DNA from: Candidatus Marinacidobacterales bacterium
GTDB lineage: Bacteria; Acidobacteriota; Vicinamibacteria; Marinacidobacterales; SMYC01
Length of the DNA stretch: 64,000 bases
Reading direction: 5' to 3'
NCBI GenBank assembly: GCA_965237955.1
Contig: OZ250169.1
Span: 2,784,001 to 2,848,000 of the forward strand
The notes beneath the pieces were generated by a model. It searched no databases. It was not told the DNA's origin and saw only the letters and a program-made list of their open reading frames with translations. A program made the translations under genes and the position numbers. Shown piece by piece: positions 36,022 to 62,543 of this stretch (the stretch's first letter is position 1; each line of letters opens with the position of its first letter).

Positions 36022-36082
36022 ACGCTTACAGAGTATGCCATGCCTCGTTGTGATCCGCATAAAAGAAGATCGCCTATCGATG

Positions 36083-36165
36083 GGCCCTTGGTCCGGTCGC
36101 AAACACAGGTACTGAGCTGCTGATTTATGGTCTATTTCAAAAGCGCCGAGTTTTGGCACAGGACG
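36083..36165 (+). repeat. Family C element terminus (...AGCTGCTGATTTATGGTCTATTTC...GAGTTTTGGCACA-GGACG)
   Basis: Copies end at 41818, 60195, 60942, 62341 and (inverted) start at 61959; shorter variants at 44546, 46436, 49192. Confidence 0.8.
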
Positions 36166-36836
36166 GGGTGCCTGAATCTGAGGTCAGCGCGGCGCTCGCT
36201 GATTTCCCTATGAATGCTCTTTTGGTGTTTAACAAAGTAACTGGAGTAGGAAACAGACGTACTTTCTCGCCCACTCTCATGCCAGTTTCTGGGTTTGGAG
36301 ACAGCCTAAATCTGATTCGGACTAAGAGAACACCAACTCTTTACGCTGGCTTGTGCGCAAACTTGTCGTCGCTTTGCTTAGATTTTACGGCCCGCCAGAA
36401 AGTCGGTGGAGTGAACATTAACTTCTTTCACGTTCAGCAATTGCCAGTTCTAGGCCCGAACTTCTACACGGAGCCCCGCTTCGCCTTCCTTGTCCCCAAG
36501 GTTCTCGAACTCATCTACACCTCTCACACAATGGCTCCCTTTGCCCGCGATCTCGGCCATGGCGGCCCCCCATTCGCCTGGGATGAGGAACGACGCGCGT
36601 GCCTGCGCGCCGATCTCGACGCCTTCTACGCCCGCGCCTACGGTCTGATCCGCGACGAGCTGCGCTACATCCTCGACCCCGCCGACGTGAAGGGCCCCGA
36701 CTACCCGTCGGAAACCTTCCGCGTACTCAAGGAAAAGGAAATCCGCCAATACGGTGAATATCGCACGCGCCTCCTCGTCCTCGCCGCGTGGGACCGGATG
36801 GAGGCGAATGGCCAATTCACGGGACTTGGTTTGTGA
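36166..36836 (+). pseudogene. C-terminal fragment of a type IIG (Eco57I-like) restriction-modification protein
   Basis: ANLSSLCLDFTARQKVGG, LRADLDAFYARAYGL.RDELRYILDP, ETFRVLKEKEIRQYGEYRT; begins at a family C terminus. Confidence 0.8.
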
Positions 36837-37594
36837 TCGAAACGCCCCAAGGTTTCGTCGTCGCTGAGGAATGCCGAAAGGCCGCTTGGCAGAACGGCTA
36901 TCGCCGCCCGCTGGAAGAGGAGGCCGGCTGGGCACGATACGGCTCCACCACTGCGAAGGGGACCATCTACGTCTCCGCGACGGGGCCTTCCGGTCCCTGG
37001 TTCCTCGCTCTCGACCACACGGGCGTCGTCGAGGAACTGGAGCATCCACGCGCCGACATGCCCGGTCCCGGCCTTGCCCGCTATGCCTTCGCCAGGCTAA
37101 CCGAACTTTATGCGGTGCTGCCCAAGGTCTACGATCTTGGCGTAGCGTTGCCCGAGGCCCCGCTCGAAGACTTCCGCGCCGCAACCCGCGACCTGCCAAA
37201 GACCACCGAGGCAGAGCGCCTCGTCGTTCAGCGCATCGGCCAGGGCATCTTTCGCGACCGCCTGCTGACCTACTGGCAGGGCCGTTGCCCCTTGACCGGA
37301 ATCACGGACCGAGACCTGCTGCGTGCCTCGCACATCATTCCCTGGAAGGACTGCCCCGACGACGCCGAACGTCTGAACATTCACAACGGACTGCTTCTCT
37401 CAGCACTTTGGGATGCGGCCTTTGACAGGGGACTAATAACCTTCGATGACGACGGGAGACCAGAGTTCTCGCCTCCCCTGAGCGAGCCGGCACGAACCGA
37501 GCTGCATTGGCATCATCCCATTCCGTTGACAGAGAAGCACCAGAAACGGCTTGCATGGCATCGAGCGAATCATTTCAAGAAAGACCAGGGATGA
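36833..37594 (+). CDS. HNH endonuclease (HNH_2-type, restriction-associated)
   Basis: QRIGQGIFR, CPLTGI, LRASHIIPW, NGLLL...DAAFDRGLITF; GTG overlaps the RM stop. Confidence 0.88.
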   Translation: MIETPQGFVVAEECRKAAWQNGYRRPLEEEAGWARYGSTTAKGTIYVSATGPSGPWFLALDHTGVVEELEHPRADMPGPGLARYAFARLTELYAVLPKVYDLGVALPEAPLEDFRAATRDLPKTTEAERLVVQRIGQGIFRDRLLTYWQGRCPLTGITDRDLLRASHIIPWKDCPDDAERLNIHNGLLLSALWDAAFDRGLITFDDDGRPEFSPPLSEPARTELHWHHPIPLTEKHQKRLAWHRANHFKKDQG

Positions 37595-37855
37595 CATCAC
37601 GTTTCATTGAAGCGATGCCCGTGGTATGCCCCCAAAAACTGGCCCAAACACAGCTGAAGGAAGTCGCATAGACTGAAGCTCCAGTGGGGAGGGTCCAAGT
37701 GAAGAACCGTTTCTCCGAAGAGAAGTTCGTACCCAATCGGGTCGCACTGAGCATGAACGTCGTCAAGACCATCAAGCGCTCTTCTCGCGTGGAGAGGATC
37801 TCGTGAGGTTGATTTACATGGACGAGGCTGGTATCGGAAATCCTGCCGAGGAGCC

Positions 37856-38340
37856 CGTCCTGTCCAAAAACACAAACGAACTCAAGAGTGGCGCGCCGGG
37901 CCGTTTCGATCGCGTCGTGTCCAAAAATACAAACGCACTCTAAGACCCGCGCGACGGGCCATCGTCGAGTTCAGCTATCATTAATTATGGAGAGCGCCAC
38001 CATCAAGGACTTGGCAACGCGTTTGTGTTTTTCGTGACGACGGGCTCGTTCGCCTACGGCGTCAAAGAGTCCGTGAGTGTGGCCTGTGCCTTCTATTTAT
38101 TCATCCGCGCGCCCAGAACTTGATTAGCGTCGTGTCCAAAAATACAAACGAACTCAAGACCGGCTCGCCGGGACGTTTCGGAATAGACGTATCTACGCTT
38201 GATTGGCCAATGGGAGCTACCCTTGACACTGTTGGTCGTCGCAATCGCTGGTTGGCTCCAGCGTGACCAACAGGCCGCTATCGCGTCCTGTCCAAAAACA
38301 CAAACGAACTCAAGACCGGCGAGTCTGCGCCGTTTCGATC
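37856..38340 (+). mobile_element. Stack of nested TGT-type termini (families B and A) with an rve-integrase N-terminal remnant
   Basis: CGTCS-TGTCCAAAAAYACAAACG at 37856, 37913, 38128, 38284; CC-TGTGCCTTCTATTTATTCATCCG at 38083; remnant MIGQWELPLTLLVVAIAGWLQRDQQ at 38199. Confidence 0.75.
37913..38043. mobile_element. ~130-bp MITE, family B (degenerate, inverted relative to 59664-59792)
   Basis: Aligns by eye to the reverse complement of 59664-59792. Confidence 0.7.
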
Positions 38341-41167
38341 GTCATCGACCCGTGGCGAGCCCCAGATCTGGGGCGTGTCGGAGGCGATGTCGGCGATTCG
38401 GGTTCCCCGTACGCGCAGGGAAAACACCGTTCAGCAACGAGGTGCCACGCTCCCGGGCGGAGACCTGGATCCAGGCCCGGGCCGCACATGGACCAGAACG
38501 TGCTAGCCGGCTACGCCACGGTAGCCCTGGCCTCGATTCTGGACCCCTCGGGCGGCCTCTTTTCCGCTGCCCGCAAGGTCCCCGGTCAGATGGCGCAAAC
38601 GTGGCACTCGAAAATCGGGATTAGAGACGAATGCCGAAAATGAGGCCCGTTCAGCCCTTCTAGCGCATCTCTGGTGCCACCTACCCTTGCAAAACCCCGC
38701 CAACCGCGCGGAAAATCTCATCCGTCTCTGCAGTGCCACAGTTTGCAAGACTGGGTGGCGGATGGTGCAGTCTCGAGCCATCCGGTCTCGGCAAAAGGTA
38801 TTTTGGCAATTTTGGGAGTCAGGATCGAATTTTGGCCGTGCGCGTGGTTGGGGCAATGTAGCGAAAACTCAGAGAAGCCCTGATGCCCACAGCGTTCTAT
38901 CCTGTTTTGTTACAGTGACTTAACGGAAGCCACCACGTGCTGGTCCCCGCACATCTCATCGGCGGGTGCTCGTTCCGAGCCGGAATCGAATTTGCTTCAA
39001 TCAAATTTCTTGTACGGCAATCTCAACCTCCTGGACGCTTGAAAGAGGGCCGTGTCGTAAACCCTCCGGAGGCGGCTCCGACCGTTACTCATTGTCGCAA
39101 AAGGCTTTACGTCTCATCAGCGAATGTTCGTCGACGGGAACATCTTTCCGGCTATCGCAGTCAGGAGGCTCGAGTGGAGCTTCCGATTCTTGGCTGGAAA
39201 CGATCAGAAACAGAGCAAAACAGGCCATTAACGTGCAATTTGGGGCGATTTTGGGGCTTATCGGGACGTTTTTCCACTTAATCGCGCAGACAATGAGAAG
39301 ACGCTCTACGCCTAGATCGCGCCTGAGGAGAGGACGAATAGCGGAATTCGAATTGGCCAAACCTCGAATTCATCCAGTGGAGTTTTACGGAGGAAACGAA
39401 GATGACTCCGCAGACGGTCCAGTACAAGGAGCTATCCGAGTCTGGAAACCATGACAGGGAATTTGGGCCAGTTTGAGGCTGATTGGTGGAGGCCAGTGTC
39501 GGAGAGCAGCTTGCTGCTAACCGAGGCCATTCACGAAGTGGGCGCTGGAGGCTCACAGCGTTTTGACGAGCACTCGCTGTTTCTCCCAATCGTCGGGAAG
39601 CGGATGATGCAAGAGGTAGCTCGAGGTCAGCCCAACGGGCTGGCGGCCTTCGACAATGGCGCGGACGATGTCGGGAGCCAGGAAGGCATAACGGATTGCC
39701 TTGCGCACGCGGTCCGTTGGGATGGCGTTTTCGGTGGCAATCTGCTCATAGGTTTTGCCTGCTTTGATTCGGTCGAGCCAGGAGAGGGCGTTTCTGATAT
39801 TGCGCAGGAGTGTGCGGTCGACGGATTTCGTGGGGTTGCCCAGAACGAGCTTGGTCTCGACGCCGCGTCGACGCAAGCGGAACGGTGCGAGGATGCGGAG
39901 TGCATCCTCGCGAATGCGGTCAGGTCCCATAGACAGGCAATCAGCGAACGCATTGCGGTCGAGCAGGATGGACACAGAGCCGGGGCTGATATCGACCTGC
40001 CGGATAAGACGGAGCAGGGGGGCTGCCGAGGCACTATCATCATTAGTATCGGAACACAGCCCGTCTAAAAAGCGACGCACCGAGGCGAGCTCTTGCATCG
40101 TCGGAGTGTGGATCAACGAGGCCGAGAAGGTCGTGACATCCACATGCTGTCGGATGAGATGCACGACGGTCTGTTCCAGCATCGGGGCGGGCAGTCGCCA
40201 GCCGGAGAGGTCCTTTTGACCACTGTGCTGGATGAGGCGCCGGGAGACGTAGTAGCGGAGCCGTTGCCCGTTTTTCTTTTTGGTGTGGCTCGGCGTCAGC
40301 CGGTCGCCGGTCTCGTCGAAGAGCTTGCCTGCCAGTGGGGAACGGGCTGCACGGCCCTTCGTCGTGCGTCTCCTTGGTTTGGCAGCCCCTGCCTGCAGCT
40401 GCGTTTGGACCGCGTCCCAGAGCTCCGGAGCAATGATCGATGGATGCTGGCCCTCGTAGACACACCTCTGGTGCCGGATGCGGCCGGCGTAGAGAGGATT
40501 GGTCAGCAGGCAGTGGAGGTGTCCGCGACGGAACGGCAGCCCGCCCGTTCGGGTTCCATCCGCGGTGAAGCGTTGCTTGGTACGCAGTCTCAGACGGTCC
40601 GCCTCGGCCTTCACCTGCCGGAGCGTTTCGTGCTTTCGGTACAGCGCATAGAGCGTCCGGACCGTTTCGGCCTCAGCCTCGTTGATGCGCAGCGTGCGCC
40701 CGTCCTTCTCATAGCCGAGCGGTACGCGGCCGCCCATCCATAGTCCCTTGCGCTTGGAGGCAGCGACCTTATCGCGGATCCGCTCGGCCGTGACCTCGCG
40801 TTCGAATTGTGCGAAGGACAGCAGCATATGCAGCGTCAGTCGTCCCATGCTGGTCGCGGTGTTGAAGGACTGAGTCACCGAGACGAAAACCGCGCCGGCC
40901 GCCTCGAGCCGCTCGACGAGCTTTGCAAAGTCGGAGAGGGAACGGGTCAGCCGGTCGACCTTGTAGACCACAATCTGGTCGACGAGACCTGCGTCGATGT
41001 CGGCGAGCAAGCGCTGCAGGCCCGGGCGCTCCAGGGTTCCTCCCGAGAGCCCCGCGTCCTCGTAGACGGTTGGCAGCAGCACCCAGCCCTCCGCTTTCTG
41101 GCTCGCGACATACGCGGCGCAGGCTTCTCGCTGCGCATCGAGGGAGTTGAACTCCTGTTCGAGACCC
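38284..41167. repeat. ~2.9-kb duplicated segment, copy 1
   Basis: Colinear with 56636-59663, with scattered substitutions. Confidence 0.92.
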
Positions 41168-41214
41168 TCTTCCGCACTCTTTCGCGTATAGATGGCACAG
41201 CGGATCTTCTTCAT
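39553..41214 (-). CDS. Large serine recombinase (resolvase + recombinase domains), intact
   Basis: RCAIYTRKS, SLDAQREAC, VYKVDRLTRS, FAQFERE, WMGGRVPLGY, NPLYAG; 553 aa. Confidence 0.93.
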   Translation of the reverse strand: MKKIRCAIYTRKSAEEGLEQEFNSLDAQREACAAYVASQKAEGWVLLPTVYEDAGLSGGTLERPGLQRLLADIDAGLVDQIVVYKVDRLTRSLSDFAKLVERLEAAGAVFVSVTQSFNTATSMGRLTLHMLLSFAQFEREVTAERIRDKVAASKRKGLWMGGRVPLGYEKDGRTLRINEAEAETVRTLYALYRKHETLRQVKAEADRLRLRTKQRFTADGTRTGGLPFRRGHLHCLLTNPLYAGRIRHQRCVYEGQHPSIIAPELWDAVQTQLQAGAAKPRRRTTKGRAARSPLAGKLFDETGDRLTPSHTKKKNGQRLRYYVSRRLIQHSGQKDLSGWRLPAPMLEQTVVHLIRQHVDVTTFSASLIHTPTMQELASVRRFLDGLCSDTNDDSASAAPLLRLIRQVDISPGSVSILLDRNAFADCLSMGPDRIREDALRILAPFRLRRRGVETKLVLGNPTKSVDRTLLRNIRNALSWLDRIKAGKTYEQIATENAIPTDRVRKAIRYAFLAPDIVRAIVEGRQPVGLTSSYLLHHPLPDDWEKQRVLVKTL

Positions 41215-41215
41215 G

Positions 41216-41647
41216 TTAGGCCTTGCGCTTGGGCGTGAGACCGAAAAAGCGTGGTCCTGACCAGTGGGTGCCGGTGATTCGCTTTGCGATGGTAGTGAGG
41301 GACGGATAGGTTTTGCCATCGAACCGATAGCCGTTGTCGATTACCTCGACCTGGTAGGTCCGGCCATTCCACTCGCGGACGAGATGGGTGCCGGCAGAAA
41401 CGGACCCTGCGGGAGCGCCGGAGCTTGGTGTCTCGTTCGCCATGGCAGCCAGAGCGCGCCGGGTTGCGGCCGAAAGCCCGCCATGGGTCCGGCACTGGCG
41501 TTCGTGCAAGAGAACGCGGCGCAGGAAAACACGCGAGAGCGAGCTTGGAGGAGCAGCCCCAAAGGTCTGCTCCCAGACCCGCCGTAAGCTGGCGAAGTCC
41601 AAACCGTCCAAAACGACGTTCCGGCCAACCCCTGTATCCTGCGGCAT
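41216..41647 (-). CDS. DUF2924-family protein
   Basis: GTHLVREWNG, YPSLT.IAKRITGTHWSGPRFFGL; the usual partner of this recombinase type. Confidence 0.85.
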   Translation of the reverse strand: MPQDTGVGRNVVLDGLDFASLRRVWEQTFGAAPPSSLSRVFLRRVLLHERQCRTHGGLSAATRRALAAMANETPSSGAPAGSVSAGTHLVREWNGRTYQVEVIDNGYRFDGKTYPSLTTIAKRITGTHWSGPRFFGLTPKRKA

Positions 41648-41818
41648 CACCGAACGTTCGCTCTTGTGCTCGATAAAGTCCAGTCTAATGAGGGACTTCC
41701 GGGTGCGAAGTTCACTGCCCGTAGCTCGCCACGCAGCCCAAGGGTCGGCGGATTCCAAGGGCGTCTAAGCTGCTGATTTGTGGTCTATTTCAAGAGGGGC
41801 GAGTTTTGGCACAGGACG

Positions 41819-41970
41819 GGGTCCATTGGTACAACACGCAACGACTCTTGGAGCCGATCGGAAATGTCTCCCCCGTCGAGTACGAGATGAACTACTATCG
41901 GTCGCAGGAAGGCTCGCTAGAGATGGCGAGACTCAACTAAAACAGTCTCCAGAAAACCCGGGGCGGTTCA
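41819..41970 (+). mobile_element. IS3-family (IS51-group) remnant: transposase C-terminus and right TIR
   Basis: VHWYNTQRLLEPIGNV.P.EYE; ends GTCTCCAGAAAACCCGGGGCGGTTCA. Confidence 0.8.
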
Positions 41971-41971
41971 G

Positions 41972-42678: not shown

Positions 42679-43350
42679 TGAGTCACATCCGGTGCTTGCG
42701 CTGTTTGCTGTTGGTGATGTGTACGTATCTCTTTGTAAAAAAAGCGCTTACGCTCCATTTTAGCGCGCGGCGAAGGTCGTGAGCGCTATTTGGGCTGTAA
42801 TTTAATGCAGCGTAACGTCTTAGCGTCATCTCACCAACACTGAATGGCGGAAGCACCGTACAGGACGCCATTCCAAAGGTTGGTGGTCTCCATCATTATT
42901 ACACTCGACGCGCTGCTGGAGTCCTATCTGCTCGGGACGGCTGCGGAACTTCGCACCAGCTTACACCTCTACCCCTGAGTAGAGCCGACGCCGGCCCTCA
43001 AAACGTCCTACATAAAGATGACCAGAGCGTCCTGGTTGCAGGCAGTTTGACAATCTCATGCAGCTCAGGTTTATGGAAGGGACAACCTCTAATACGAAAC
43101 GTCCCGGCGAGCCGGTTTTGAGTTCGTTTGTATTTTTGGACACGACGCCTTTGAACATCGGTCGAATCTTGAAGACCGCGCTGTTCGGCTTTTCAGACCA
43201 AACCCCACGAAAGGTAACGTTTCTCGGCTCAAGTCTGGTCTGAAAATAGTCGTTCAGGAATAGGCCGATCTTGTCGAATATGGCGTAGGCAGACCTTGAT
43301 CGACTACCTGCAAGAGGTCTACGTCGCGTTTGTCATCGACAGTCCGCCGT

Positions 43351-44307: not shown

Positions 44308-44589
44308 CTTAGTCTTACCTCTCACAGGCTATGCCGTCGTTCTCTCGGTCGATTGCGCGCGATGGAGACGCATATCGCGGTCCTCCACCTAGTAGCGTAC
44401 AGCGGCGAAGAATGGAACTCGGGTGCTTCCGCAGTTAAATGTTGGCGCCTGCCGTGTAACCCGTTCGCCTGCTAGAGTTTGAGCCTGATTTCGAGAGGCG
44501 CAGTTCTTTCGTCGATGTCGGCTGGGCCGAGTTTTGGCACAGGACGAGGAAGACGCCCAATGAAAGCCAGACCGAAGAGGATCTGATCT

Positions 44590-46232: not shown

Positions 46233-46236
46233 GCCA

Positions 46237-46260
46237 CTAGTCCCCTGGATCTTTAATTAT
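46237..46260. mobile_element. Isolated IS630 terminus
   Basis: CTAGTCCCCTGGATCTTTAATTA is the reverse complement of 25003-25025. Confidence 0.8.
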
Positions 46261-46264
46261 CACA

Positions 46265-46435
46265 GGTAAACCCCCGGCTCTGCCGGGGTGACTCGCAGAG
46301 GTTTGACCGTGTGAGGCAGTAATAACAAAGTCCTCCTTGGAAAGCGCCAACTTCCAAACAAGGAGGACTCAATGAAAAACTACGAAAGCCTATCGCACAC
46401 GCGGTACGACTGTAAATACCATGTTGTCTTTATCC
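46265..46435 (+). mobile_element. IS200/IS605 left end and tnpA N-terminal remnant
   Basis: Hairpin CCCCGGCTCTGCCGGGG; SD-sequestering stem AGTCCTCCTTG/CAAGGAGGACT; MKNYESLSHTRYDCKYHVVFIP from 46372. Confidence 0.85.
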
Positions 46436-46659
46436 CGTCCTGTGCCAAAATTTGATCCACTTGCAACGTTACAAGCGAACAGTTGACGCGGCGTGGGAGG
46501 TGAGGCCCGCGACAACCATTGAGCAGAGCTACCCTTTGGACGGGTCGTCACCATGCAGATGACCACCTAGTCGAGAGCGAATATCCAAGCGTGTTCCTGA
46601 AGCTGTTTTCACGCTACGCCGAGCGGGCCCACCGAGGGGCTACCGTCGCCAGCGACCAT

Positions 46660-46967
46660 CTACGCGGCACGGCAGTAGTAGTTGAGAATGCCCCCAAGTC
46701 GCTCTCGCGACACGATGGGGCCAGCGCTATTCGCGCTTGCCGGCAGAGGTGTGAGGAGCTCGTTGCCGAGACTTTGGTGGTTCCGTTCTGTGTGTGATAG
46801 TGCACTACGTATTCGGTTACCGCTGTGCGCAGGTGTCGCTCACTGAGAGGTACGAAGCGGTCGAGACACTCTCGACGTATGGAGAGAACGAATCTTTCCG
46901 CGTATGCGTTCAGATTCGGACTGTTCGCTGGAAGGCGGAGGGGCTTCACACCTGAATCTCTCAAGAG
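46660..46967 (-). pseudogene. rve/integrase-core transposase C-terminal remnant, cut by IS256
   Basis: [27 protein letters not shown] (frameshifted), [11 protein letters not shown]. Confidence 0.8.
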
Positions 46968-47018
46968 GGTCAAGTCTTAATTTTCCTGTCAAATCTCCGT
47001 ACGGTTCCCCGCGCTCGG

Positions 47019-48221: not shown

Positions 48222-48436
48222 CTCCCCAAATACCAGTTGTTCCTCGAACTGCTTGAGCAATCGCTGACTCGGGCGAAGGACTTCCGACCCATGGGGCTGG
48301 CGGATGAATAAATAGAAGGCACAGGCTTGAGCGCACGGCGTTGCCAATATCTTGGGGTCGGATCGGCCCTGAATGCATCAACTTGACAGGGAGCGGATTG
48401 GTCAAGCAGGTCAATCGTGAGAATATTGGATCGAGC

Positions 48437-49075: not shown

Positions 49076-49194
49076 AGGGAAGTGTCACGAGCAGCCGGAA
49101 GTAGTTCTCACCAGGGGCGATGTCCCGGAAGTGGCGTCGCTCAGATGCCGATTTGTAAACGTTGCCAGTGGATCAAGTTTTGGCACAGGACGAG

Positions 49195-49368: not shown

Positions 49369-49829
49369 ACTTGTCGGACAGATCGACAGTCCCATCTCAT
49401 CGGCCAGAGCTGACACCGCATACGACGCCAGCGGCGTCTATGAGGCGATCGAGAATCACAGCGCTCATCGCTCGCCGAGGGTGCTGATACCGCCGCGCAA
49501 GGGCGCCCAGCTCGCATCGGGGCCGGCGAGCAGCCGACAGCGTAATCGCAACATTGCAGCACAAGCTCGGCTCGGCAAACGAAAGTGGCACACAGAATCG
49601 GGCTACAGCAAACGGAGCAAAGTCGAGACAACGTTCCATCGCTACAAGGCTATCGTGGGCTCAGCGATGCGAGCGAGAGGGTTGGCGGCACAGAGAGTCG
49701 AGGCAAGGATCGGGTGCAAGATTCTCAACACCATGACGGCGCTCGGGATGCCTGATAGCGAGATGACCGGATGATGGGAGTCGAGGCCAAGCGAGCTCTC
49801 GGCCTCTATCGGAGTTGTGCACCAAGGCA
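49369..49829 (+). mobile_element. IS5 type A copy 3, 3' part only
   Basis: Matches the last ~460 bp of copies 1 and 2, including the right TIR. Confidence 0.9.
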
Positions 49830-49994
49830 GCGGGCTGCTACGTTTCTACCATCGGGAAGCCGCATGAGTATTTTGACCTCACGGGAGGTCGAGCTGGCCA
49901 ATGGAGCGAGGTCACTTCGCCTTTACTTCATGTCCACACCTTTTGAGAGTAGCTCGCGTGATGCGGGAAAAAGCGTTAAAAGGTTAACTACCGC

Positions 49995-52472
49995 ATGAGC
50001 ACCAACAATCCGTTCCAGGGAAGTCTTTTCGCCAATGATTTCCTTTGCGGATCCATCGTCGAATCACCCGACTGGCGGGCGATCGACGACATGGCGCTCG
50101 ACACTCTCGAAGCCTCCGTCCGGAACGTTTTCAACCTTTTTCCGACGAGGAAGACGCCCAACGAAAGCCAGACCGAAGAGGATTTGATCTGGCCTGTCCT
50201 CTTACAGCTCGGGTGGACGGCGAGCCTACGGCAGCAAAACCTCTCCACCCGAGGCCGCGAGGACGTGCCCGACGGCCTGCTATTCACAGACGCTGCGGCG
50301 AAGGAACGCGCCAACAGCTTCACCGAGGAATGGAAGCGTTACGAGTTAGGCCTCGCGGTTGTCGAGTCCAAGCGCTGGCTGCGCCCGCTCGACCGCCGCG
50401 CCGAACGCCGGGGCGAGGAAAACGCACCCTCGACTCAGATGCTCCGCTACCTTCGGCGCGTGGACGATCTGACCACCGGCAAGTTGCGATGGGGCGTCCT
50501 CACCAACGGCGCAAGGTGGCGACTCTATTATCAAGGTGCGCGGTCCGTCTCGGAGCAGTTTTTCGAAGTCGATCTCGCGGTGCTTCTCGATCTCCCCGGC
50601 CACAATGACGGCCTGTTCGCCCTCACCGAAGCTGAGCGACACCATTGGCTTAAGGTGTTCATGCTCGTCTTCCGGCGCGAAGCTTTCCTTCCCGGGACGA
50701 CCGATCCGCGCACGTTCCACCAGCGTGCTATCGAGGAAGGCCGGTTCTACGAAGAGCGCGTGGCCTCCAGCCTTTCCGGTTTGGTCTTCGGCCAGGTTTT
50801 TCCTGGGCTTGCTCGCGCCATCGCAGCCGCCGCGCCCGCGGCGCCGTTGCCGGAAGTGCGCGAAGCCGCCCTGATTCTTCTCTACCGCCTGCTCTTCATC
50901 CTCTATGCCGAGGACCGCGACTTACTGCCTGTCCGCGATGCACGCTATGACGACTACGCCCTTCGGGAGAAGGTCCGCGACGATATCAAACAGCGGAAGG
51001 ATCGAGAGGACGTTTTTTCCGCCAGCGCCGCCCGATACTGGTCGGCCATCGACGACCTTTGCCGCGCCATTGACCAAGGCGATGCCTCCATCGGTCTGCC
51101 GCCCTACAACGGCGGGCTGTTCGACCGCGACCGCACGCCACTTCTAGGGCGTATTCGGCTTGACGATCAAGTCATGGCTGATGTCATTGATGCGCTCTCA
51201 TTCGAGCAAACCCCTGATGGTCGTCGCTACATCAACTATCGCGACCTTGGTGTCCAGCAGCTCGGCTCTATCTACGAGCGTTTGCTCGAACACGAGGTCA
51301 TCCGCGATAGCAAGGGGATTACTGTTCGTCCCAATGTTTTCGCACGGAAAGGGTCGGGCAGCTACTACACGCCCGACGATCTGGTCGGCCTGATCATCAA
51401 AGAAACGATCGAGCCCCTGGTCCGGTCGCGCATGGGCGTGTTCACGGCAAAACATTCCGAACTCGCCACGAGCGAACTTTCCAAGGAACGCCAGATCGGC
51501 CGATTAAAGCATGTCGACCCAGCCGAAAAGCTGCTCGACCTGAAAGTCTGCGACCCCGCCATGGGCTCGGGGCACTTTCTGGTCAACCTTGTGGACTATC
51601 TCGCTGACCGGGTGATCACGGCCATGGCCGAGGCGGAAGCTTCGGTGGACGGCTACATTTCGCCGCTGACCGAGCGGATCGACGGTATCCGCAACACGAT
51701 CATGGCCAACGCCAAGGACCGCGGCTGGACCATTGATGCAGACCAGCTCGACGACAGGCATATTGTCCGGCGCATGGTGCTCAAGCGCTGCGTCTATGGC
51801 GTTGACAAGAACCCCATGGCCGTTGAGCTGGCCAAGGTCGCGCTCTGGCTACACACGTTCACGGTGGGCGCACCGTTGAGCTTCCTGGATCATCACCTCC
51901 GTTGCGGCGATAGCCTGTTCGGTTCATGGGTACGCACCGGCATCGATCAGGCGAAGGAGCAAGGCGGTCCGCTCTTTTTGAAAGGGCCAGTAGAACGGGC
52001 CATGCGGGCGGCGGCTTCCATGCAGATTATCGAGGGACTGACCGATGCCGAGATTGCCGAGGCTCATCGTTCCGCGGAAGAGTTCGCCAAGATCGAGAAG
52101 ATGACGGCGCCATTGAATGCCTTCCTTTCCCTGGTCCATGCCTTCGATTGGCTGAACATCCGTAATCGCGACGACAAGGCGGCACTTTCCGCCTACTTCA
52201 ACGGCGTCTTCGGCGATCCCATCGACGTTGCCTCGGGAAGACCGAAGATCTTTTCACCTGAAGTACGGGCGGGTGAGCGGTTTGCCGGATTGCTCGACAA
52301 AGCACAGCAGCTTCTCGACGACGAACGCTTCTTCAATTGGCAAGTGGCTTTTCCCGGTGTGTGGTCGGAGTGGGAAGGCGCCGGGCTGACCGGCGGTTTC
52401 GACGCTGTGATCGGCAATCCGCCCTGGGACCGGATGAAGCTGCAACAGGTTGAGTGGTTCGCGGCGCGGCGC
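49995..52472 (+). pseudogene. Type IIG (Eco57I-like) restriction-modification enzyme, N-terminal ~826 aa, cut by IS5
   Basis: PDGLLF...VESK nuclease, LTNG..WRLY, GSYYTP, DPAMGSGHFL, FDAVIGNPPW; interrupted shortly after motif IV. Confidence 0.9.
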
Positions 52473-53557
52473 GGCGTTGTTGCACCGCTCTGGCTGAGAG
52501 CGAAATCCGCCTATGGTGGTGGCCGAGGTATGTTCGAGCATGAAGTATCCCAAGCGCTGCCAGTACAAGCACGCGAAGCAGAAGAAGTACCACGTTCGCA
52601 ACTGGGCGGAATACAACGAAGGGCTGCGCCGCCGGGGCGATTTGACAGTCTGGTTTGACGAGGAGGCAATCGCGAACTGGAAGGCCGACAAGACCGGTAA
52701 GCCTGGCGGTCAACGGGTCTATTCAGACATGGCGATTGAAACGGGCCTGGTTGTCCGGATGGTGTACAAGCTCGCCTACCGACAAACCGAAGGCTTCTTG
52801 CACTCGATCGCCTCGCTTCTCGGGCTCGGTATCGAGATCCCGGACTACTCGACGTTGTGTCGGCGCTCGAGGTTGCTCCGCAAGAAGCTGCGGATTCCGA
52901 AAGCCGCGAGCACTCAACCCATCCACCTGATGATCGATAGCACGGTCTTGAGGATTCATGTTGGAAACGCTCGCAAACCGCCAAAGCAGCGCGCATGGCG
53001 CAAGTTGCACATCGCCGTTGATCGCGAGACAGGGAACATTGTTGCGTCCGAACTGACGGCGTCACGAGCTCGCGACGCAACCCGAGTCCCCGCTTTGCTA
53101 ACACAGATTCAAGCACCTCTAGTTTCGGTGGCGGCGGACAGTGCATACGACAAGGAAGCGGTCTACGAAGCCATCGAAGCGCACAGTCCTGGACGAAGGA
53201 CGCGCGTGGTGATTCCGCCGCAACGAAACGCGACGCTCAGTCAGAATTCGAACACCGCCATGCAGGAGCGCGATCGCCATATTCGTGCAATCGAAAGACA
53301 CGGCCGACGTGAATGGTACAAGCTCTCAGGCTACACCAAGCGAAGCATGGTGGAGAACGCGGTCTATCGTTACAAGGCGATCATCGGGCCGGAGATGCGG
53401 GCTCGAACGTTGGCGAGGCAACGAGTTGAACACCGAATTGGGTGCGAGATACTCAACAAGATGGCTGCGCTCGGGATGCCCGATACGTACTGCGCCGGGT
53501 GACTCTGCAACCGGCACAGGGAGGTCAGCGATTTGCTCCGGGCCGTGCAACAACGCC
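52473..53557 (+). mobile_element. IS5-family element, type B copy 1, 1085 bp
   Basis: TIR GGCGTTGTTGCAC / GTGCAACAACGCC; no target-site duplication. Confidence 0.92.
52540..53502 (+). CDS. IS5-family transposase (DSTG motif altered to DSTV)
   Basis: NWAEYNEGLRRRGDL, WRKLH, ADSAYD, RSMVEN. Confidence 0.9.
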   Translation: MKYPKRCQYKHAKQKKYHVRNWAEYNEGLRRRGDLTVWFDEEAIANWKADKTGKPGGQRVYSDMAIETGLVVRMVYKLAYRQTEGFLHSIASLLGLGIEIPDYSTLCRRSRLLRKKLRIPKAASTQPIHLMIDSTVLRIHVGNARKPPKQRAWRKLHIAVDRETGNIVASELTASRARDATRVPALLTQIQAPLVSVAADSAYDKEAVYEAIEAHSPGRRTRVVIPPQRNATLSQNSNTAMQERDRHIRAIERHGRREWYKLSGYTKRSMVENAVYRYKAIIGPEMRARTLARQRVEHRIGCEILNKMAALGMPDTYCAG

Positions 53558-53703: not shown

Positions 53704-53872
53704 TGGCATGAGGAAAATCTTGGCCACTGCATCATCGATCCGTCGGCCACCTACACGCATGACGTTGTATCTCAGTCATTCGGTCCTGACAAGGACCGGT
53801 TGAAGCCGGCGGTCGGTAAACCAACGAGCTATGGGGTCTAAGACGATTGAACTCTTGCGTACTGAAGCGGCA

Positions 53873-54928: not shown

Positions 54929-55129
54929 TGGTAACTGCCTGTGCTCCGCAAAAAAGAAGATCGACCAGAAGCAGCCTACCATAGCAGGTCGGTATTAGAC
55001 CTGCTATGCGGGGGGAAACTCACGTTCTGCCTGTCGCAACCCTGTGCCTTCTATTTATTCATCCGGGCGCCCGAACTTGATTAGTCTCCGGTCTGTCGGC
55101 ACCATACCTGCTTGATTTCGCCGTTTGTT

Positions 55130-56214
55130 GGCGTTGTTGCACCGCTCTGGCTGAGAGCGAATTCCGCCTATGGTGGTGGCCGAGGTATGTTCGAGCATGA
55201 AGTATCCCAAGCGCTGCCAGTACAAGCACGCGAAGCAGAAGAAGTACCACGTTCGCAACTGGGCGGAATACAACGAAGGGCTGCGCCGCCGGGGCGATTT
55301 GACAGTCTGGTTTGACGAGGAGGCAATCGCGAACTGGAAGGCCGACAAGACCGGTAAGCCTGGCGGTCAACGGGTCTATTCAGACATGGCGATTGAAACG
55401 GGCCTGGTTGTCCGGATGGTGTACAAGCTCGCCTACCGACAAACCGAAGGCTTCTTGCACTCGATCGCCTCGCTTCTCGGGCTCGGTATCGAGATCCCGG
55501 ACTACTCGACGTTGTGTCGGCGCTCGAGGTTGCTCCGCAAGAAGCTGCGGATTCCGAAAGCCGCGAGCACTCAACCCATCCACCTGATGATCGATAGCAC
55601 GGGCTTGAGGATTCATGTTGGAAACGCTCGCAAACCGCCAAAGCTGCGCGCATGGCGCAAGTTGCACATCGCCGTTGATCGCGAGACAGGGAACATTGTT
55701 GCGTCCGAACTGACGGCGTCACGAGCTCGCGACGCAACCCGAGTCCCCGCTTTGCTAACACAGATTCAAGCACCTCTAGTGTCGGTGGCGGCGGACAGTG
55801 CATACGACAAGGAAGCGGTCTACGAAGCCATCGAAGCGCACAGTCCTGGACGAAGGACGCGCGTGGTGATTCCGCCGCAACGAAACGCGACGCTCAGTCA
55901 GAATTCGAACACCGCCATGCAGGAGCGCGATCGCCATATTCGTGCAATCGAAAGACACGGCCGACGTGAATGGTACAAGCTCTCAGGCTACACCAAACGA
56001 AGCATGGTGGAGAACGCGGTCTATCGTTACAAGGCGATCATCGGGCCGGAGATGCGGGCTCGAACGTTGGCGAGGCAACGAGTTGAACACCGAATTGGGT
56101 GCGAGATACTCAACAAGATGGCTGCGCTCGGGATGCCCGATACGTACTGCGCCGGGTGACTCTGCAACCGGCACAGGGAGGTCAGCGATTTGCTCCGGGC
56201 CGTGCAACAACGCC
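55130..56214 (+). mobile_element. IS5-family element, type B copy 2, 1085 bp
   Basis: Near-identical to 52473-53557; inserted into the 5' end of a family A element. Confidence 0.92.
55197..56159 (+). CDS. IS5-family transposase
   Basis: DSTG, ADSAYD, RSMVEN intact. Confidence 0.92.
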   Translation: MKYPKRCQYKHAKQKKYHVRNWAEYNEGLRRRGDLTVWFDEEAIANWKADKTGKPGGQRVYSDMAIETGLVVRMVYKLAYRQTEGFLHSIASLLGLGIEIPDYSTLCRRSRLLRKKLRIPKAASTQPIHLMIDSTGLRIHVGNARKPPKLRAWRKLHIAVDRETGNIVASELTASRARDATRVPALLTQIQAPLVSVAADSAYDKEAVYEAIEAHSPGRRTRVVIPPQRNATLSQNSNTAMQERDRHIRAIERHGRREWYKLSGYTKRSMVENAVYRYKAIIGPEMRARTLARQRVEHRIGCEILNKMAALGMPDTYCAG

Positions 56215-56631
56215 GGTAGCGGGCGCGAAGACGCGGAACGCGCCCGTGTGGTGGACACGCTCGAGCAACAGACGCGAGAAGCCGAGGGGCAGGGGTTCGA
56301 TATCGATGCGGTGACAGAGAGCGACCTCGCTATGCCGGCACGCACACCATCACCCGTCACCATGGAGGACCTCGACAGGATTATCGGGTCATCTGACCTG
56401 ATGCCGCCAGGGACCGATGTCCAGCCCATGGGACGTCGAGAATACGGCTTCTTGGCCCCGGGAATGACCGAGCGTCTGCGAGTGACCACCGACCCGGAGT
56501 ATTTCGAGGAAAACGCCGAAAGCCTGGAACTGTGGTCCCCAGGAAACCCTCTGTTTACCCCTCCGGAGTTTACTCCGCAGGCGGACGAACCGCCTGCCGA
56601 CAAAACATTGAAGGATATCCTGGATGGCTGA
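56215..56631 (+). pseudogene. C-terminal fragment, probably of an RM-associated SNF2-type helicase
   Basis: GFDIDAVTESDL...RVTTDPEYFEENAESLELWSPGNPLF recalled as the tail of such helicases; no helicase motifs remain. Confidence 0.5.
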
Positions 56632-56853
56632 TGCCCGTCCTGTCCAAAAACACAAACGAACTCAAGACTGGCGCGCCGGGCCGTTTCGATCGTCATCGAC
56701 CCGTGGCGAGCCCCAGATCTGGGGCGTGTCGGAGGCGATGTCGGCGATTCGGGTTCCCCGTACGCGCAGGGAAAACACCGTCCAGCAACGAGGTGCCACG
56801 CTCCCGGGCGGAGACCTGGATCCAGGCCCGGGCCGCACATGGACCAGAACGTG

Positions 56854-56986
56854 CTAGTCCCTTGGATCTTTGATTACTATACAAAGTTAGGCTTTTCGCC
56901 AGCCCATAAGATTCATAAGATTCATGCACTTAGAAGGGTTTCGGCAAGCTCTGCTTTATCTAGTTTGTTCTGATACAGGGGACTAG
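56854..56986. mobile_element. IS630-derived MITE (129 bp plus a duplicated CTAG)
   Basis: CTAGTCCCTTGGATC...CAGGGGACTAG; empty site GTGCTAGCCGG at about 38500. Confidence 0.9.
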
Positions 56987-58047
56987 CCGGCTACGCCGCG
57001 GTTGCCATGGCCTTGATTCTGGACCCCTCGGGCGGCCTCTTTTCCGACGCTGCACGGCCCTGTCAGCGACCCACTCCCCCCCTTTGGCGCAAACGTGGCA
57101 CTCGAAAATCGGGATTAGAGACGAATGCCGAAAATGAGGCCCGTTCAGCCCTTCTAGCGCGTCTCTGGTGACACCTACCCCTGCAAAACCCCGCCAACCG
57201 CGCGGAAAATCTCACCCGTCTCTGCAGTGCCACAATTGGCCAGACTGGGTGGCGGATGGTGCAGTCTCGAGCCATCCGGTCTCGGCAAAAGGTATTTTGG
57301 CAATTTTGGGAGTCAGGATCGAACTTCTGGCCGTGCGCGTGGTTGGGGCAATGTAGCGAAAACTCAGAGAAGCCCTGATGCCCACAGCGTTCTATCCTGT
57401 TTTTGTACAGTGACTTAACGGAAGCCACCACGTGCTGGTCCCCGCACATCTCATCGACGGGTGCTCGTTCCGAGCCGGAATCGAATTTGCTTCAATCAAA
57501 TGTCTTGTACGGCAATCTCAACCTCCTGGACGCTTGAAAGAGGGCCGTGTCGTAAACCCTCCGGAGGCGGCTCCGACCGTTACTCATTGCCGCAAAAGGC
57601 TTTACGTCTCATCAGCGAATGTTCGTCGACGGGAACATCTTTCCGGCTATCGCAGTCGGGAGGCTCGAGTGGAGCTTCCGGTTCGTGGCTGGAAACGATC
57701 AGAAACAGAGCACAACAGGCCATTAACGTGCAGTTTGGGGCGATTTTGGGGCTTATCGGGACGTTTTTGCGCTTAATCGTGCAGACAATGAGAAGAAGCT
57801 CAACGCCTAGATCGCGCCTGAGGAGAAGGCGAATAGCGGAATTCGAATTGGCCAAACCTCGAATTCATCCAGCGGAGTTTTATGGAGGAAACGAAGATGA
57901 CTCCGCAGACGGTCCAGTACAAGGAGCTATCCGAGTCTGGAAACCATGACAGGGAATTTGGGCCAGTTTGAGGCTGATTGGTGGAGGCCAGTGTCGGAGA
58001 GCAGCTTGCTGCTAACCGAGCCGATTCACGGAGTGGGCGCTGGAGGC

Positions 58048-59663
58048 TCACAGCGTTTTGACGAGCACTCGCTGTTTCTCCCAATCGTCGGGAAGCGGAT
58101 GATGCAAGAGGTAGCTCGAGGTCAGCCCAACGGGCTGGCGGCCTTCGACAATGGCGCGGACGATGTCAGGAGCCAGGAAGGCATAACGGATTGCCTTGCG
58201 CACGCGGTCCGTTGGGATGGCGTCTTCGGTGGCAATCTCCTCATAGGTTTTGCCTGCTTTGATTCGGTCGAGCCAGGAGCGGGCGTTTCTGATATTGCGC
58301 AGGAGTGTGCGGTCGACGGATTTCGTGGGGTTGCCCAGAACGAGCTTGGTCTCGACGCCGCGTCGGCGCAAGCGGAACGGTGCGAGGATGCGGAGTGCAT
58401 CCTCGCGAATGCGGTCAGGTCCCATAGAGAGGCAAGCAGCGAACGCATTGCGGTCGAGCAGGATGGACACAGAGCCAGGGCTGATGTCGACCCGCCGGAT
58501 AAGACGGAGCAGGGGGGCTGCCGAGGCACTATCATCATTACTGCCGGAACACAGCCCGTCTAAAAAGCGACGCACCGAGGCGAGCTCTTGCATCGTCGGA
58601 GTGTGGATCAACGAGGCCGAGAAGGTCGTGGCATCCACATGCTGTCGGATGAGATGCACGGCGGTCTGTTCCAGCATCGGGGCGGGCAGTCGCCAGCCGG
58701 AGAGGTCCTTTTGGCCACTGTGCTGGATGAGGCGCCGGGAGACGTAGTAGCGGAGCCGTTGCCCGTTTTTCTTTTTGGTGTGGCTCGGCGTCAGCCGGTC
58801 CCCGGTCTCGTCGAAGAGCTTGCCTGCCAGTGGGGAGGGGGCTGCACGGCCCTTCGTCGTGCGTCTCCTTGGTTTGGCAGCCCCTGCCTGCAGCTGCGTT
58901 TGGACCGCGTCCCAGAGCTCCGGAGCAATGATCGATGGATGCTGGCCCTCGTAGACACGCCTCTGGTGCCGGATGCGGCCGGCGTAGAGAGGATTGGTCA
59001 GCAGGCAGTGGAGGTGTCCGCGACGGAACGGCAGCCCGCCCGTTCGGGTTCCATCCGCGGTGAAGCGTTGCTTGGTACGCAGTCTCAGACGGTCCGCCTC
59101 GGCCTTCACCTGCCGGAGCGTTTCGTGCTTTCGGTACAGCGCATAGAGCGTCCGGACCGTTTCGGCCTCAGCCTCGTTGATGCGCAGCGTGCGCCCGTCC
59201 TTCTCATAGCCGAGCGGTACGCGGCCGCCCATCCATAGTCCCTTGCGCTTGGAGGCAGCGACCTTATCGCGGATCCGCTCGGCCGTGACCTCGCGTTCGA
59301 ATTGTGCGAAGGACAGCAGCATATGCAGCGTCAGTCGTCCCATGCTGGTCGCGGTGTTGAAGGACTGAGTCACCGAGACGAAAACCGCGCCGGCAGCCTC
59401 GAGCCGCTCGACGAGCTTTGCAAAGTCGGAGAGGGAACGGGTCAGCCGGTCGACCTTGTAGACCACAATCTGCTCGACGAGACCTGCGTCGATGTCGGCG
59501 AGCAAGCGCTGCAGGCCCGGGCGCTCCAGGGTTCCTCCCGAGAGCCCCGCGTCCTCGTAGACGGTTGGCAGCAGCACCCAGCCCTCCGCTTTCTGGCTCG
59601 CGACATACGGCGGCGCAGGCTTCTCGCTGCGCATCGAGGGAGTTGAACTCCTGTTCGAGACCC
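58048..59663 (-). pseudogene. Large serine recombinase copy 2, 5'-truncated and frameshifted (~59609)
   Basis: Lacks the catalytic YTRKS motif; one extra base relative to copy 1. Confidence 0.9.
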
Positions 59664-59792
59664 CGTCGTGTCCAAAAACACAAACGCGTTGCCAAGCCCT
59701 TGATGGTTGCGCTCTCCATCATAATGATAGATGAAACTCGGCGACGGCCCGGCGCGCCGGTCTTGAGTTCGTTTGTGTTTTTGGACAGGACG
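59664..59792. mobile_element. 129-bp MITE, family B
   Basis: Perfect 18-bp TIR TGTCCAAAAACACAAACG (59669/59787) plus outer CGTCG/GGACG. Confidence 0.85.
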
Positions 59793-60031
59793 GTACCCTG
59801 ATCGTGTGCCCCGGCGAACGTCTCCAGCGTGAGTGACACGTGCTTCGGCGAACCGTTGTCGCGAAGGTACGCCGGGTCGTCACCTCGTGACCATCCTTGG
59901 TTCCTGAACATCGAGATGGGGCGCGCCGGTTGGGTTCCCGACCGGAGGACCGAAATGGCTCCAATTGCGACATATGAAGATCTCCCCGCCTGATCGGGTT
60001 CACGGTGGTTCACGACGAAACAATACGAGCT

Positions 60032-60083
60032 TGTGCCTTCTATTTATTCATCCGTGCGCACGGATGAATAAATAGAAGGCACA
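60032..60083. repeat. Perfect 52-bp palindrome made of two family A termini
   Basis: TGTGCCTTCTATTTATTCATCCGTGC|GCACGGATGAATAAATAGAAGGCACA. Confidence 0.92.
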
Positions 60084-60255
60084 GGTCGGAAGCCAGCCTT
60101 GGCGCGAAATACCCTGGATTCTGCGCGGATTCCAAGGGCGTCTAAGCTGCTGATTTGCGGTCTATTTCAAAAGGGCCGAGTTTTGGCACAGGACGGGGAC
60201 AGACGAGGTCCTTTCAACGATTCTGTGAACGTTCGGTTCTCCGAAGCCTGCAGGA

Positions 60256-60705
60256 TCACTCCTTCGGACGAGGCCGATTTCTGAAACGCTGCCAGCATTG
60301 CCGGAGCAACAGCGGGATTCCGACCAGGAGCAGATACGGAGTGAGAACGCCGATAACCACCATATGTGGGCCGAGCAATCCGCCGACGAGGCTGAACAGT
60401 ACAGCAAGCGGAGTCGCCACCCCAAGCGTGATCAGTAAAACGCTCCGCGAGGCTCCGACAACTCCTCTCAAGAGGCGTTGCACCAGCAACCCTACCAGCA
60501 CACCGCCCAGAAAAAACAGAACCAAGCTGGAGAACAAAGCCGGAATCGCAAACAGCAACTCCTCTGGATTCCAAGAATCCATGGAGCCGAACCGGACAAG
60601 AGCGACCAGGACTTGCAGAACACAAAATCCGACGCCGAACAGGACGGGCGTCTTCCAGTAACTCCATCGAGAAAAAGAGGAAGTTCTTAAAGGATCGACC
60701 CCCAT
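60256..60705 (-). CDS. Hypothetical four-TM membrane protein
   Basis: GGAGGA Shine-Dalgarno; four hydrophobic segments. Confidence 0.65.
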   Translation of the reverse strand: MGVDPLRTSSFSRWSYWKTPVLFGVGFCVLQVLVALVRFGSMDSWNPEELLFAIPALFSSLVLFFLGGVLVGLLVQRLLRGVVGASRSVLLITLGVATPLAVLFSLVGGLLGPHMVVIGVLTPYLLLVGIPLLLRQCWQRFRNRPRPKE

Positions 60706-61035
60706 AAATCCTCCAATTCGAACCCTGCGCGGAGCCGATGCGCGCGGGCTACTTGATTCTGTCTATTATCCCGCAAGACGGCCTGGCCGGCACTGCGCTA
60801 CAGGACCGGCAATGTCGTCTTGATCCTGAATCCTCGGGCCAGACGATTGTAAAGCCTACGGCCCTTGGTCCGGTCGCAAACACAGACACTAAGCTGCTGA
60901 TTGATGGTCTATTTCAAAAGGGCCGAGTTTTGGCACAGGGCGGGGTGTCTCGGACAGTGAGGTCAAACGCATCCGCCGTTTCATTCGCGAGCCGTACGGA
61001 ATGGTATTGGTGACGGGCCCGAGCACGAGTCGGGA

Positions 61036-61470
61036 TCATCCGCCGATGCCGTCGGCAGAGAGGTAGGCGTCGAGCGAGTGGAGCTCCTGCGACAGGTCGT
61101 CGACCATGTTCCTCAACAAGTGTCGCGTCGATAGCATCCCGGCGACGTTCCCCCCGCGGTCGATGATGGGAAGATGGCGAATGTGGTTGCTCGTCATCAT
61201 CGCGAGAGCCTCGCGATGATGCATGTTGCTGGCAGCAACGATGGGCGGCGAGGTCATCACGTCGCGGATTGGGGTCTCATCCAAGTGGCTTCCTTTGGCC
61301 ACCACACGCTTCAGGAGATCGCTAGCGGTGAAGATGCCCTTCGCCGATTGGTTCTCCACCACCACGACTGCGCCGGCACCGCAGTCAACCATTGTTTCCA
61401 CGGCGTGTCGGACCGTGGACTCGGTTCCGATCGTCACCGCCGGAGTCCGGGTGATCTTGAGCAGCTTCAT
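61036..61470 (-). CDS. CBS-domain pair protein
   Basis: GIFTASDLL, IRDVMT, IRHLPII, GMLSTRHLL; AAGGAGG Shine-Dalgarno. Confidence 0.9.
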   Translation of the reverse strand: MKLLKITRTPAVTIGTESTVRHAVETMVDCGAGAVVVVENQSAKGIFTASDLLKRVVAKGSHLDETPIRDVMTSPPIVAASNMHHREALAMMTSNHIRHLPIIDRGGNVAGMLSTRHLLRNMVDDLSQELHSLDAYLSADGIGG

Positions 61471-61859
61471 AAACTGGCCTCCTTGTCTCGCACCTTCGGC
61501 GTGGCGTTGGACGTGATCCCCGTACGGGCGTTCAGTTAGGCAATCGAGAAATCAGGTATAGTGTGCCTCCTCGCGAGTAGGAGGAGAGCGACTTGTAGAC
61601 GTAAATCTTATACACCAATAAGCGGTCGGATTTCAACTCCAAGTCACATCGCAGCGCTGCTACTTCGACGTGAAAACATCTGGGTGTGGGCTCCGAGATA
61701 TTGGGTCTGGGAACTAGCTCAGGGTTCGGGTTCCGGTTGCATTCTGGTGAGGAGGCGCCCGACGATTGCAGGTAACTGGACTTGATCCAGTTTCGTGGAC
61801 ACATTCTGAACGGCGGATACGATGTCCACAATGGCAAAGACAACGCAGCCCCGGCGACC

Positions 61860-61957
61860 CCTGTGATCCGCAAAAAAGAAGAACGGCCAGAAGCAGCCGA
61901 CCATAGCAAGTCTAAAACGCGCAATCAACGCTTGATAGACTTTTTGCGGAGCACAGG
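61860..61957. mobile_element. ~98-bp MITE, family D
   Basis: CCTGTGATCCGCAAAAA ... TTTTTGCGGAGCACAGG; related ends at 36049, 54938, 62543. Confidence 0.75.
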
Positions 61958-61958
61958 T

Positions 61959-62341
61959 CGTCCTGTGCCAAAACTCAGCCCTTTTGAAATAGACCATAAA
62001 TCAGCAGCTTAGCGACTGGGCCAAGGGCCCTTAGGCTCTACAGTTACCCAAAACCCGCGGTCGACGTTCGAGAGCCGCGGCCGTTTCACCGAACGGCGGA
62101 GGACGGCGAGCTGCTGCCGAAGAGCGACATTGTCGAGAGCCAGCTCGCGACGAGCCTTGAAGGCGGAGATGAGAGCGCGAACAAACGACGAAATCAAGCA
62201 GGCATGGTGCCGGCAGACCGGAGACTAATCAAGTTTGGGGCGCCCGGATGAATAAATAGAAGGCACAGGCCCTTGGCCCCCCAGTCGCTAAGCTGCTGAT
62301 TTATGGTCTATTTCGAAAGGGCCGAGTTTTGGCACAGGACG
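61959..62341. mobile_element. Inverted pair of ~70-bp family C ends enclosing the 5' end of a family A rve element
   Basis: 61959-62030 is the reverse complement of 62268-62341; inside is ISSFVRALISAFKARRELALDNVALRQQLAVL..RPRLSNVDRGFWV on the minus strand. Confidence 0.8.
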
Positions 62342-62543
62342 GGATCCTGCGAACAGACAAGATTCCGAGCGAATGCGAGGGCATTGACGAAAGCGGGCAC
62401 AATATTTGAGAGCAGACGCAAGAGCAAACCTTTCCACGCTTACAATGACGTCGGATCACCTCATCCGTTCGCCGCGAAACGGCCAATCCTGGCAGGTCTA
62501 AACTGCAGAATCAACGACGGATCGAGTTTTTGCGGAGCACAGG

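Follow-up and report, generated by a model that had tools for sequence, protein, structure and literature searches.

Why do the ends of four families of insertion sequences (ISs) crowd into one part of a bacterial genome, nest within one another, and show no target duplications? The question is raised by a stretch of 64,000 nucleotides from a Candidatus Marinacidobacterales bacterium of the Acidobacteriota (assembly GCA_965237955.1, contig OZ250169.1, positions 2,784,001 to 2,848,000), hereafter the window. Matches to the end motifs of the four families, A to D, number 28 between 36049 and 62543 and zero in the first 36 kb (1-36000), in line with the roughly 29 termini in 26.5 kb counted in an initial annotation of the sequence. 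Not among the 28 are two further ends, at 43084 (right end, A family) and at 63282 (D). We consider it probable that these elements, whose copies lack target duplications, join their ends to DNA one at a time, by single-end transfer accompanied by deletion of adjacent DNA.

The ends are the terminal inverted repeats of single-gene ISs of about 1.2-1.4 kb, which encode a DD35E transposase, and of miniature derivatives. Collected genome-wide, as the initial annotation had proposed, the motifs gave 931 matches (108 A, 191 B, 481 C and 151 D), and four further end types bring the total to 1,065 ends. No fewer than 996 of these fall in dense regions that occupy 2.13 of the 8.13 Mb genome, one of which begins in the window. 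A search with the rve fragment of the window found 15 clusters of related transposases in the genome. The full-length elements that were sought lie elsewhere in the genome, with 21 copies of C (about 1.43 kb), six of B (about 1.35 kb), and one each of A and D. The impression that only broken transposases accompany the ends holds for the window but not for the genome, where intact A, B, C and D types occur together with a fifth family, E (16 full-length copies of 1,346 bp), that the window does not contain. The A motif marks a left end, the left and right ends of B differ, and the C and D motifs stand at both ends. Fixed-length miniature elements account for most of the remaining ends; among them are two-family hybrids such as an A/C miniature with 10 copies and mostly different flanks. 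The transposase is encoded by a single uninterrupted open reading frame of 360-385 amino acids, in which D178, D244 and E279, with the spacing of a DD35E triad, are invariant or nearly so. In the predicted model of the C protein (pLDDT 78), N-terminal helices and helix-turn-helix units accompany an integrase-type core, and the structures that match it best are those of retroviral integrases, IstA and TnsB; a sequence search of solved structures gave no match.

Intact alleles elsewhere in the genome were used to fix each junction. The match to the allele drops from 88% to 37% at position -5 before TGT for C ends (n=246), and from 79% to 29% at the same position for B ends (n=74), while at A and D ends it continues up to TGT. 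Elements of families B and C (group I) begin 5 nt before TGT, where the initial annotation had placed their effective terminus, and those of A, D and E (group II) begin at TGT itself. The three allele pairs on which that placement rested (37913/38340, 38128/55086 and 59664/41167) have the sequences described. CGTC[CG] precedes 457 of 481 C ends and 165 of 191 B ends; a CGT start is found at 466 and 173 of them, respectively, and 5'-TG..CA-3' termini are present in A, D and E. A constant extension outside TGT had been proposed for all four families. It exists in B and C, as part of a CGT terminus, but not in A and D, where CC precedes TGT at only 44 of 108 and 47 of 151 ends. All eight end types, aligned at their true termini, show YGT followed, about seven bases on, by an A/T run. 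The inner TGT of group I is not conserved, being GGT in the members from genome G045, which start CGTAG or CGTAA. Further, 12 groups bring together ends of different families with one common outside flank, and several of these combine CGT with TGT ends. Because of the alleles, the YGT alignment and these shared flanks, we regard group I as having a CG..CG terminus and no add-on, and the CC before A and D ends as target DNA. Judged by this alignment, the B/C pentamer is the CGT terminus, in register with the TGT of A and D. A mere target preference for CGTCC is ruled out by the intact alleles, which cease to match at -5.

The flanks of these elements do not appear ever to have been contiguous. 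This was so for all 140 testable clade copies, at offsets from -20 to +30, copies being counted as testable if either flank has an intact allele (58 group I, 22 group II, 25 hybrid and 35 in other genomes). In the same genome, by contrast, 43 of 67 control copies from seven IS3, IS21, IS256 and ISL3 families have contiguous flanks; the ISAzo13 family, with one of six contiguous but uncertain boundaries, was excluded from the 67. Controls keep their duplications even within the same dense regions (ISL3, 7/7), and true IS3 copies keep 3-4 bp duplications in 9/11 and 8/12 cases. E copies and controls are equally young, the median nearest identity of E being 99.85%. The lack of visible target duplications reported for the window is upheld on paired copies: among 136, flank repeats do not exceed 5 bp and lie near the shuffled level, and none up to 60 bp was found in clade copies. 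Matches of 3 bp between flanks occur in 13 of 243 pairs, an excess that is not significant (p 0.13-0.7), and 10 of the 13 are refuted by intact alleles. In other genomes, the longest flank repeat among 45 complete C copies, drawn from the best 80 of 553 genome loci, is 3 bp, and no repeat of at least 3 bp flanks any of the 17 elements with both ends found among 19 loci of Streptomyces and G045. A test of coding-frame continuity could use 10 of 136 clade copies and has low power, and the 30 relatives searched for empty sites are all at about 78% DNA identity or below.

Among the paired copies tested for long variable duplications there is a lone outstanding case of 572 bp. At G000 691004-694267, an E element stands between two partial E copies that overlap by this length. 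Two loci in other genomes have both flanks from one repeat family, in inverted order and 475 bp apart at L017, and with 706 bp missing at L019.

When both ends of a DDE element attack one site, the target is expected to be mirror-symmetric, and we would expect the same of this clade. Family C joints occur at a one-sided motif, WYCC^MST, with a preference of about 4 bits that straddles the cut. No symmetric stagger between -6 and +10 accounts for the C target logo (chi-squared per degree of freedom, chi2/df, at least 17.5; n=175), and no mirror motif was found from -80 to +40 in 447 flanks. At most one of 28 low-scoring C joints resembles a partner joint, and a search for matched halves among 361 ends gave no offset peak. 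B joints behave like those of C. This argument from polarity is strong only for B and C, because the group II motif is nearly symmetric. The control IS5a, an IS903-like IS5 family, has two matched pairs at -9 and, to the eye, a pattern mirrored about 9 bp; the symmetry values that the stagger test returns for controls are symmetric by construction and carry no evidential weight.

The alternative that best withstands these results, although we think it unlikely, is concerted copy-in, that is, replicative transposition as in IS6/IS26 or IS903, in which both ends attack one site and intramolecular deletions or inversions then split or remove the duplications. IS6 and IS903-like elements in this genome likewise lack contiguous flanks, such an outcome is described in the consulted sections of a review of IS6 (PMC7986276), and the near-symmetry of the group II motif is what copy-in would lead one to expect. 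Yet copy-in predicts a mirror-symmetric target and matched halves, and both are found in IS5a but neither in C or B. It could survive if the complex were asymmetric and only one joint were ever kept.

Deletions in relatives also bear on single-end joining. Six Streptomyces plasmids carry a 1,192-bp element (WP_266425385.1) at an identity of at least 99%. One of these loci, L130, equals L128 minus 6,405 bp beside the right end of the element, and in L126 and L127, two loci with a common left joint and different right joints, the left flank of L132 sits 24,936 bp further out. Both deletions end exactly at TGT, and their targets, CC^ACT and CC^CCT, match the marine motif. Long reading frames in G000 break off at E ends, with no continuation beyond the element. 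Contigs from read runs X21 and X24 match up to L009:9107, immediately before an A end, and then pass into other DNA; no joint to the other flank of that L009 element is listed in them.

Under single-end transfer, the transposase would nick one end and transfer its 3'-OH to a CC^-type site. This would be the first, figure-eight step of copy-out, directed at nearby DNA and not at the partner end; a single-strand transfer starts copy-out transposition in the part of PMC7780238 available to us. Replication could then fix an adjacent deletion, or else a circle or tandem duplication. Repeated joints of this kind would generate same-facing stacks, two-family hybrid miniatures and confinement to dispensable islands, since survival in dispensable DNA only would account for the islands. 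The weakest step is how a copy reaches a new region, probably by way of circles or two successive single-end joints. No E circle joints with abutted ends are listed in four contig sets, which drop rare forms.

Several observations weigh against single-end joining. Only three of 20 same-genome pairs with one common flank have the other flank nested within 40 kb, and even these may be repeats. Around the joint, the group II motif is near-symmetric, fitting best at stagger 0 (chi2/df 1.5 for D, 3.3 for group II as a whole). Nor is the clade alone in losing duplications: contiguous flanks occur in 0/45 copies of IS5a, 0/42 of IS5b (a second IS903-like IS5 family) and 0/8 of IS6. The three remaining copies with a 3-bp flank match fall outside the allele test, which sees repeated DNA only, and copies are not fully independent of each other. 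Copy number cannot grow through adjacent deletion by itself, no initial insertion has been caught in the act, and the joints, known from sequence alone, all represent end states.

We hold it rather improbable that the elements instead use ordinary copy-out-paste-in of the IS3/IS481 type, their short duplications having later been erased at almost all copies by far more frequent adjacent deletions or by recombination between copies. The closest families do use copy-out-paste-in, according to the same available part of PMC7780238. The E family has 3-bp flank matches in 4/15 cases (p=0.06), and one of nine close back-to-back end pairs, which joins two families, has a 3-nt spacer. However, the 3-bp matches overall are neither in significant excess nor, for the most part, compatible with the alleles, and very young E copies lack the contiguous flanks that equally young controls possess. 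Least probable is that elements were pasted, with the target left uncut, into breaks already present when DNA was deleted or duplicated, as Ngan et al. (2024) proposed for single IS481 and IS5 events: an IS481 copy without target duplication does stand at a duplication joint in the portion of PMC11708052 consulted, and one E copy does lie between 572-bp repeats of another, but so strong a joint preference straddling the cut is expected if the transposase picks the site, and two self-directed single-end joints also explain the 572-bp case.

It had been suggested that these elements target their own kind and build a rearrangement hotspot. The hotspot is borne out by the dense regions, the non-contiguous flanks and the deletions in relatives. 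Self-targeting is weak: of the 996 ends in dense regions, 158 are joined into clade DNA (16%), compared with 10% for random positions and 10 of 100 for IS5a ends, and the hot spots inside old ends carry the same short target motif. New ends do nest inside older ones, as in the window, where five stacked ends (37856, 37913, 38085, 38128 and 38284) lie 43-172 bp apart. Same-facing neighbours are within 300 bp at 164 of 447 ends and opposite-facing ones at 91 of 549, a pattern that fits local deletion into short neighbours over strong self-recognition. An assembly artefact is unlikely, as 919 distinct joints keep one register, ordinary ISs keep their duplications, and the same architecture recurs in other assemblies and isolates. 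The joint at 36165 is bridged with at least 31 letters on both sides only by read run X19, which may be the source of the assembly, with X20 and X22 reaching 27-28.

The proteins place these elements in what is apparently a distinct and unclassified clade related to IS481 and IS3, with an unusual joint pattern, as far as profile and tree comparisons go. Five full-length proteins score 101.8, 83.9, 92.3, 85.4 and 78.5 bits against the IS481 profile NF033577 (cut-off 224) and 74.8-84.1 bits against the IS3 profile NF033516 (cut-off 160), IS481 being the best or second-best NCBIfam match. A quick tree of 44 rows, without a formal clade test and after six weak rows including IS21 were dropped, puts 30 clade proteins on one branch (approximate likelihood ratio support, SH-aLRT, 99), apart from 12 IS481-type and two IS3 rows, and the CGT-ended group forms a subclade within it. 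These scores and this branch accord with the poorly characterised rve clade first suspected.

Like IS481, the clade comprises single-gene elements with an rve-type DDE transposase and, in group II, TGT..ACA ends, but it differs in its sub-cut-off scores, its separate branch and the CG..CG ends of group I. IS3 elements are defined by two frameshifted open reading frames. The clade has one frame in place of orfA/orfB, and its copies lack the duplications that IS3 copies keep in this genome; it shares with IS911, IS2 and IS150 the DD35E spacing and adjacent deletions, which are known for these elements, and their single-strand figure-eight step offers a model for its reaction. The IS1202 group has a related DDE core and TGT ends, and a subclass of it is reported to insert beside Xer sites. 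The relation is stated in the parts of PMC10045372 (Kojima and Bao 2023) at hand, which give duplications of 2-15 bp for IS481 and of 5-6, 15-17 or 24-29 bp for IS1202, whereas clade copies have none. IS6/IS26 and the IS903-like IS5 families resemble the clade in copies without duplications, adjacent deletions and clustering in islands, but their transposases are unrelated, and the IS903-like control has the symmetric 9-bp target and matched halves that the clade lacks. The CGTC-tagged repetitive extragenic palindromic (REP) repeats of Di Nocera (2013) share the CGTC tetranucleotide at one end, yet these are 20-40 bp stem-loops with no associated transposase, according to the accessible text of PMC3733652, and the CGTC of the clade opens paired inverted repeats around a DDE gene.

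No account of the clade was found in the literature; most subscription papers, ISfinder and TnCentral lay outside the search, and an existing entry is possible. The clade is not described in the available sections of a paper on Frankia ISs (PMC2770080), nor did a term search find its motifs in the ISfinder-derived alignments of the part of the PMC10045372 supplement consulted, where gaps can hide motifs. Relatives number at least 7,941 among 7,998 candidates scored. The best 80 of the 553 genome loci come from eight genomes titled Ca. Marinacidobacterales, with identity mostly above 90%, and one of Gemmatimonadota. That the C transposase is mostly more than 90% identical over eight other genomes held as separate species (L012-L091) suggests recent horizontal spread. 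Distant members occur on 24 Streptomyces plasmids. Six of 200 sampled genomes of the phylum have a match at 1e-40, and the window's rve fragment, used as a DNA query against plasmids, matched none.

Within the window, the array opens with a 117-bp D/C hybrid miniature at 36049..36165 (D TGT at 36049, C terminus CGT at 36165), whose three genome copies have the same D flank and different C flanks. Directly after its C end, 36166-37594 hold the apparent 3' end of a Type IIG-like gene and an HNH gene. The same-facing stack follows on the plus strand at 37856..38345 (B 37856, B 37913, A 38085, B 38128, B 38284), with every newer end joined within an older one and alleles at 38340 and 55086; its last end cuts an N-terminal fragment of a B-family transposase (38199..38283, plus), recognised by comparison with the B protein and without a Pfam hit. 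On the minus strand lie a C end at 41760..41818 (true terminus 41818), a stacked A-family right end (43084) and B end (terminus 43147) at 43060..43147, and C-type ends at 44500..44546 (terminus 44546) and 49140..49192 (terminus 49192). At 46436..46973, a C-type end (terminus 46436, plus) precedes a C-family rve_3 fragment (46614-46973, minus); this end cuts what we take to be an IS200-type fragment at 46240-46436. An IS256 copy at 46975-48290 is cut by an A end (48290..48323, minus) joined into its start.

A Type IIG-like restriction-modification gene (49995-52483) is cut by IS5a, which is present at 52484-53538 and 55130-56215, and an IS5b fragment lies at 49370-49830. These two families have 50 (IS5a) and 79 (IS5b) full copies with flanks that are never contiguous. 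IS5a, with a symmetric 9-bp target and split halves, is confined to the same islands as the clade, and IS5b is spread genome-wide, with 53 copies in stable regions that are still without duplications. A D end (54940) and then an A end (55043) are stacked at 54940..55130 (plus), where the intact allele of junction 38128 is found, and a B end with terminus 56636 follows at 56636..56700 (plus). Near-identical segments at 38290-41760 and 56640-59660 encode a large serine recombinase, with a DUF2924 gene in the first copy, and both are bounded or cut by B and C ends. The second also holds a clean insert, a CTAG-bounded miniature of about 135 bp at 56835-56990, which has an empty allele near 38505 and 116 matches genome-wide.

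A 129-bp B/B miniature at 59664..59792, with eight genome copies, truncates the second serine-recombinase copy at its left joint, and a 52-bp, perfectly palindromic A/A micro-element occupies 60032..60083. Two C ends (termini 60195 and 60942) lie at 60140..60942 on the minus strand. A 94-bp D/D miniature at 61862..61955 has 17 genome copies, one with a 3-bp flank match. Three nucleotides from its D end at 61955 begins a 309-bp C/A hybrid miniature (61959..62267; 10 copies), which holds the start of an A-family transposase. After a minus-strand C end at 62290..62341 (terminus 62341), a D end (62541, minus) is joined into a D-family element at 62505..63282, with an rve_3 core at 62544-63136 (plus) and its right end at 63282.

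PMC11708052, in the part consulted, poses as an open question why target duplications are missing from some IS copies. Here their absence is the rule, and hundreds of exact joints, internal controls and a cultured Streptomyces series make single-end and two-end transposition directly distinguishable by experiment. The transposases are common, although annotated, if at all, only as 'integrase core domain-containing protein', and defined ends and a defined target make the family annotatable. We speculate, with more reserve than for the joining of ends one at a time, that this is a very large new IS family that never integrates both ends in concert. Single-end transfer to a one-sided CC motif would then make every joint, founding ones included, ends belonging to different families would act on their own, and the family would mainly delete and shuffle genomes in Acidobacteriota, Actinomycetota and other phyla. 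If this is true, the DNA between any two such ends would be mobile, the plastic islands of marine Acidobacteriota and of Streptomyces plasmids would be explained, and the transposase would represent a natural enzyme for making nested deletions.

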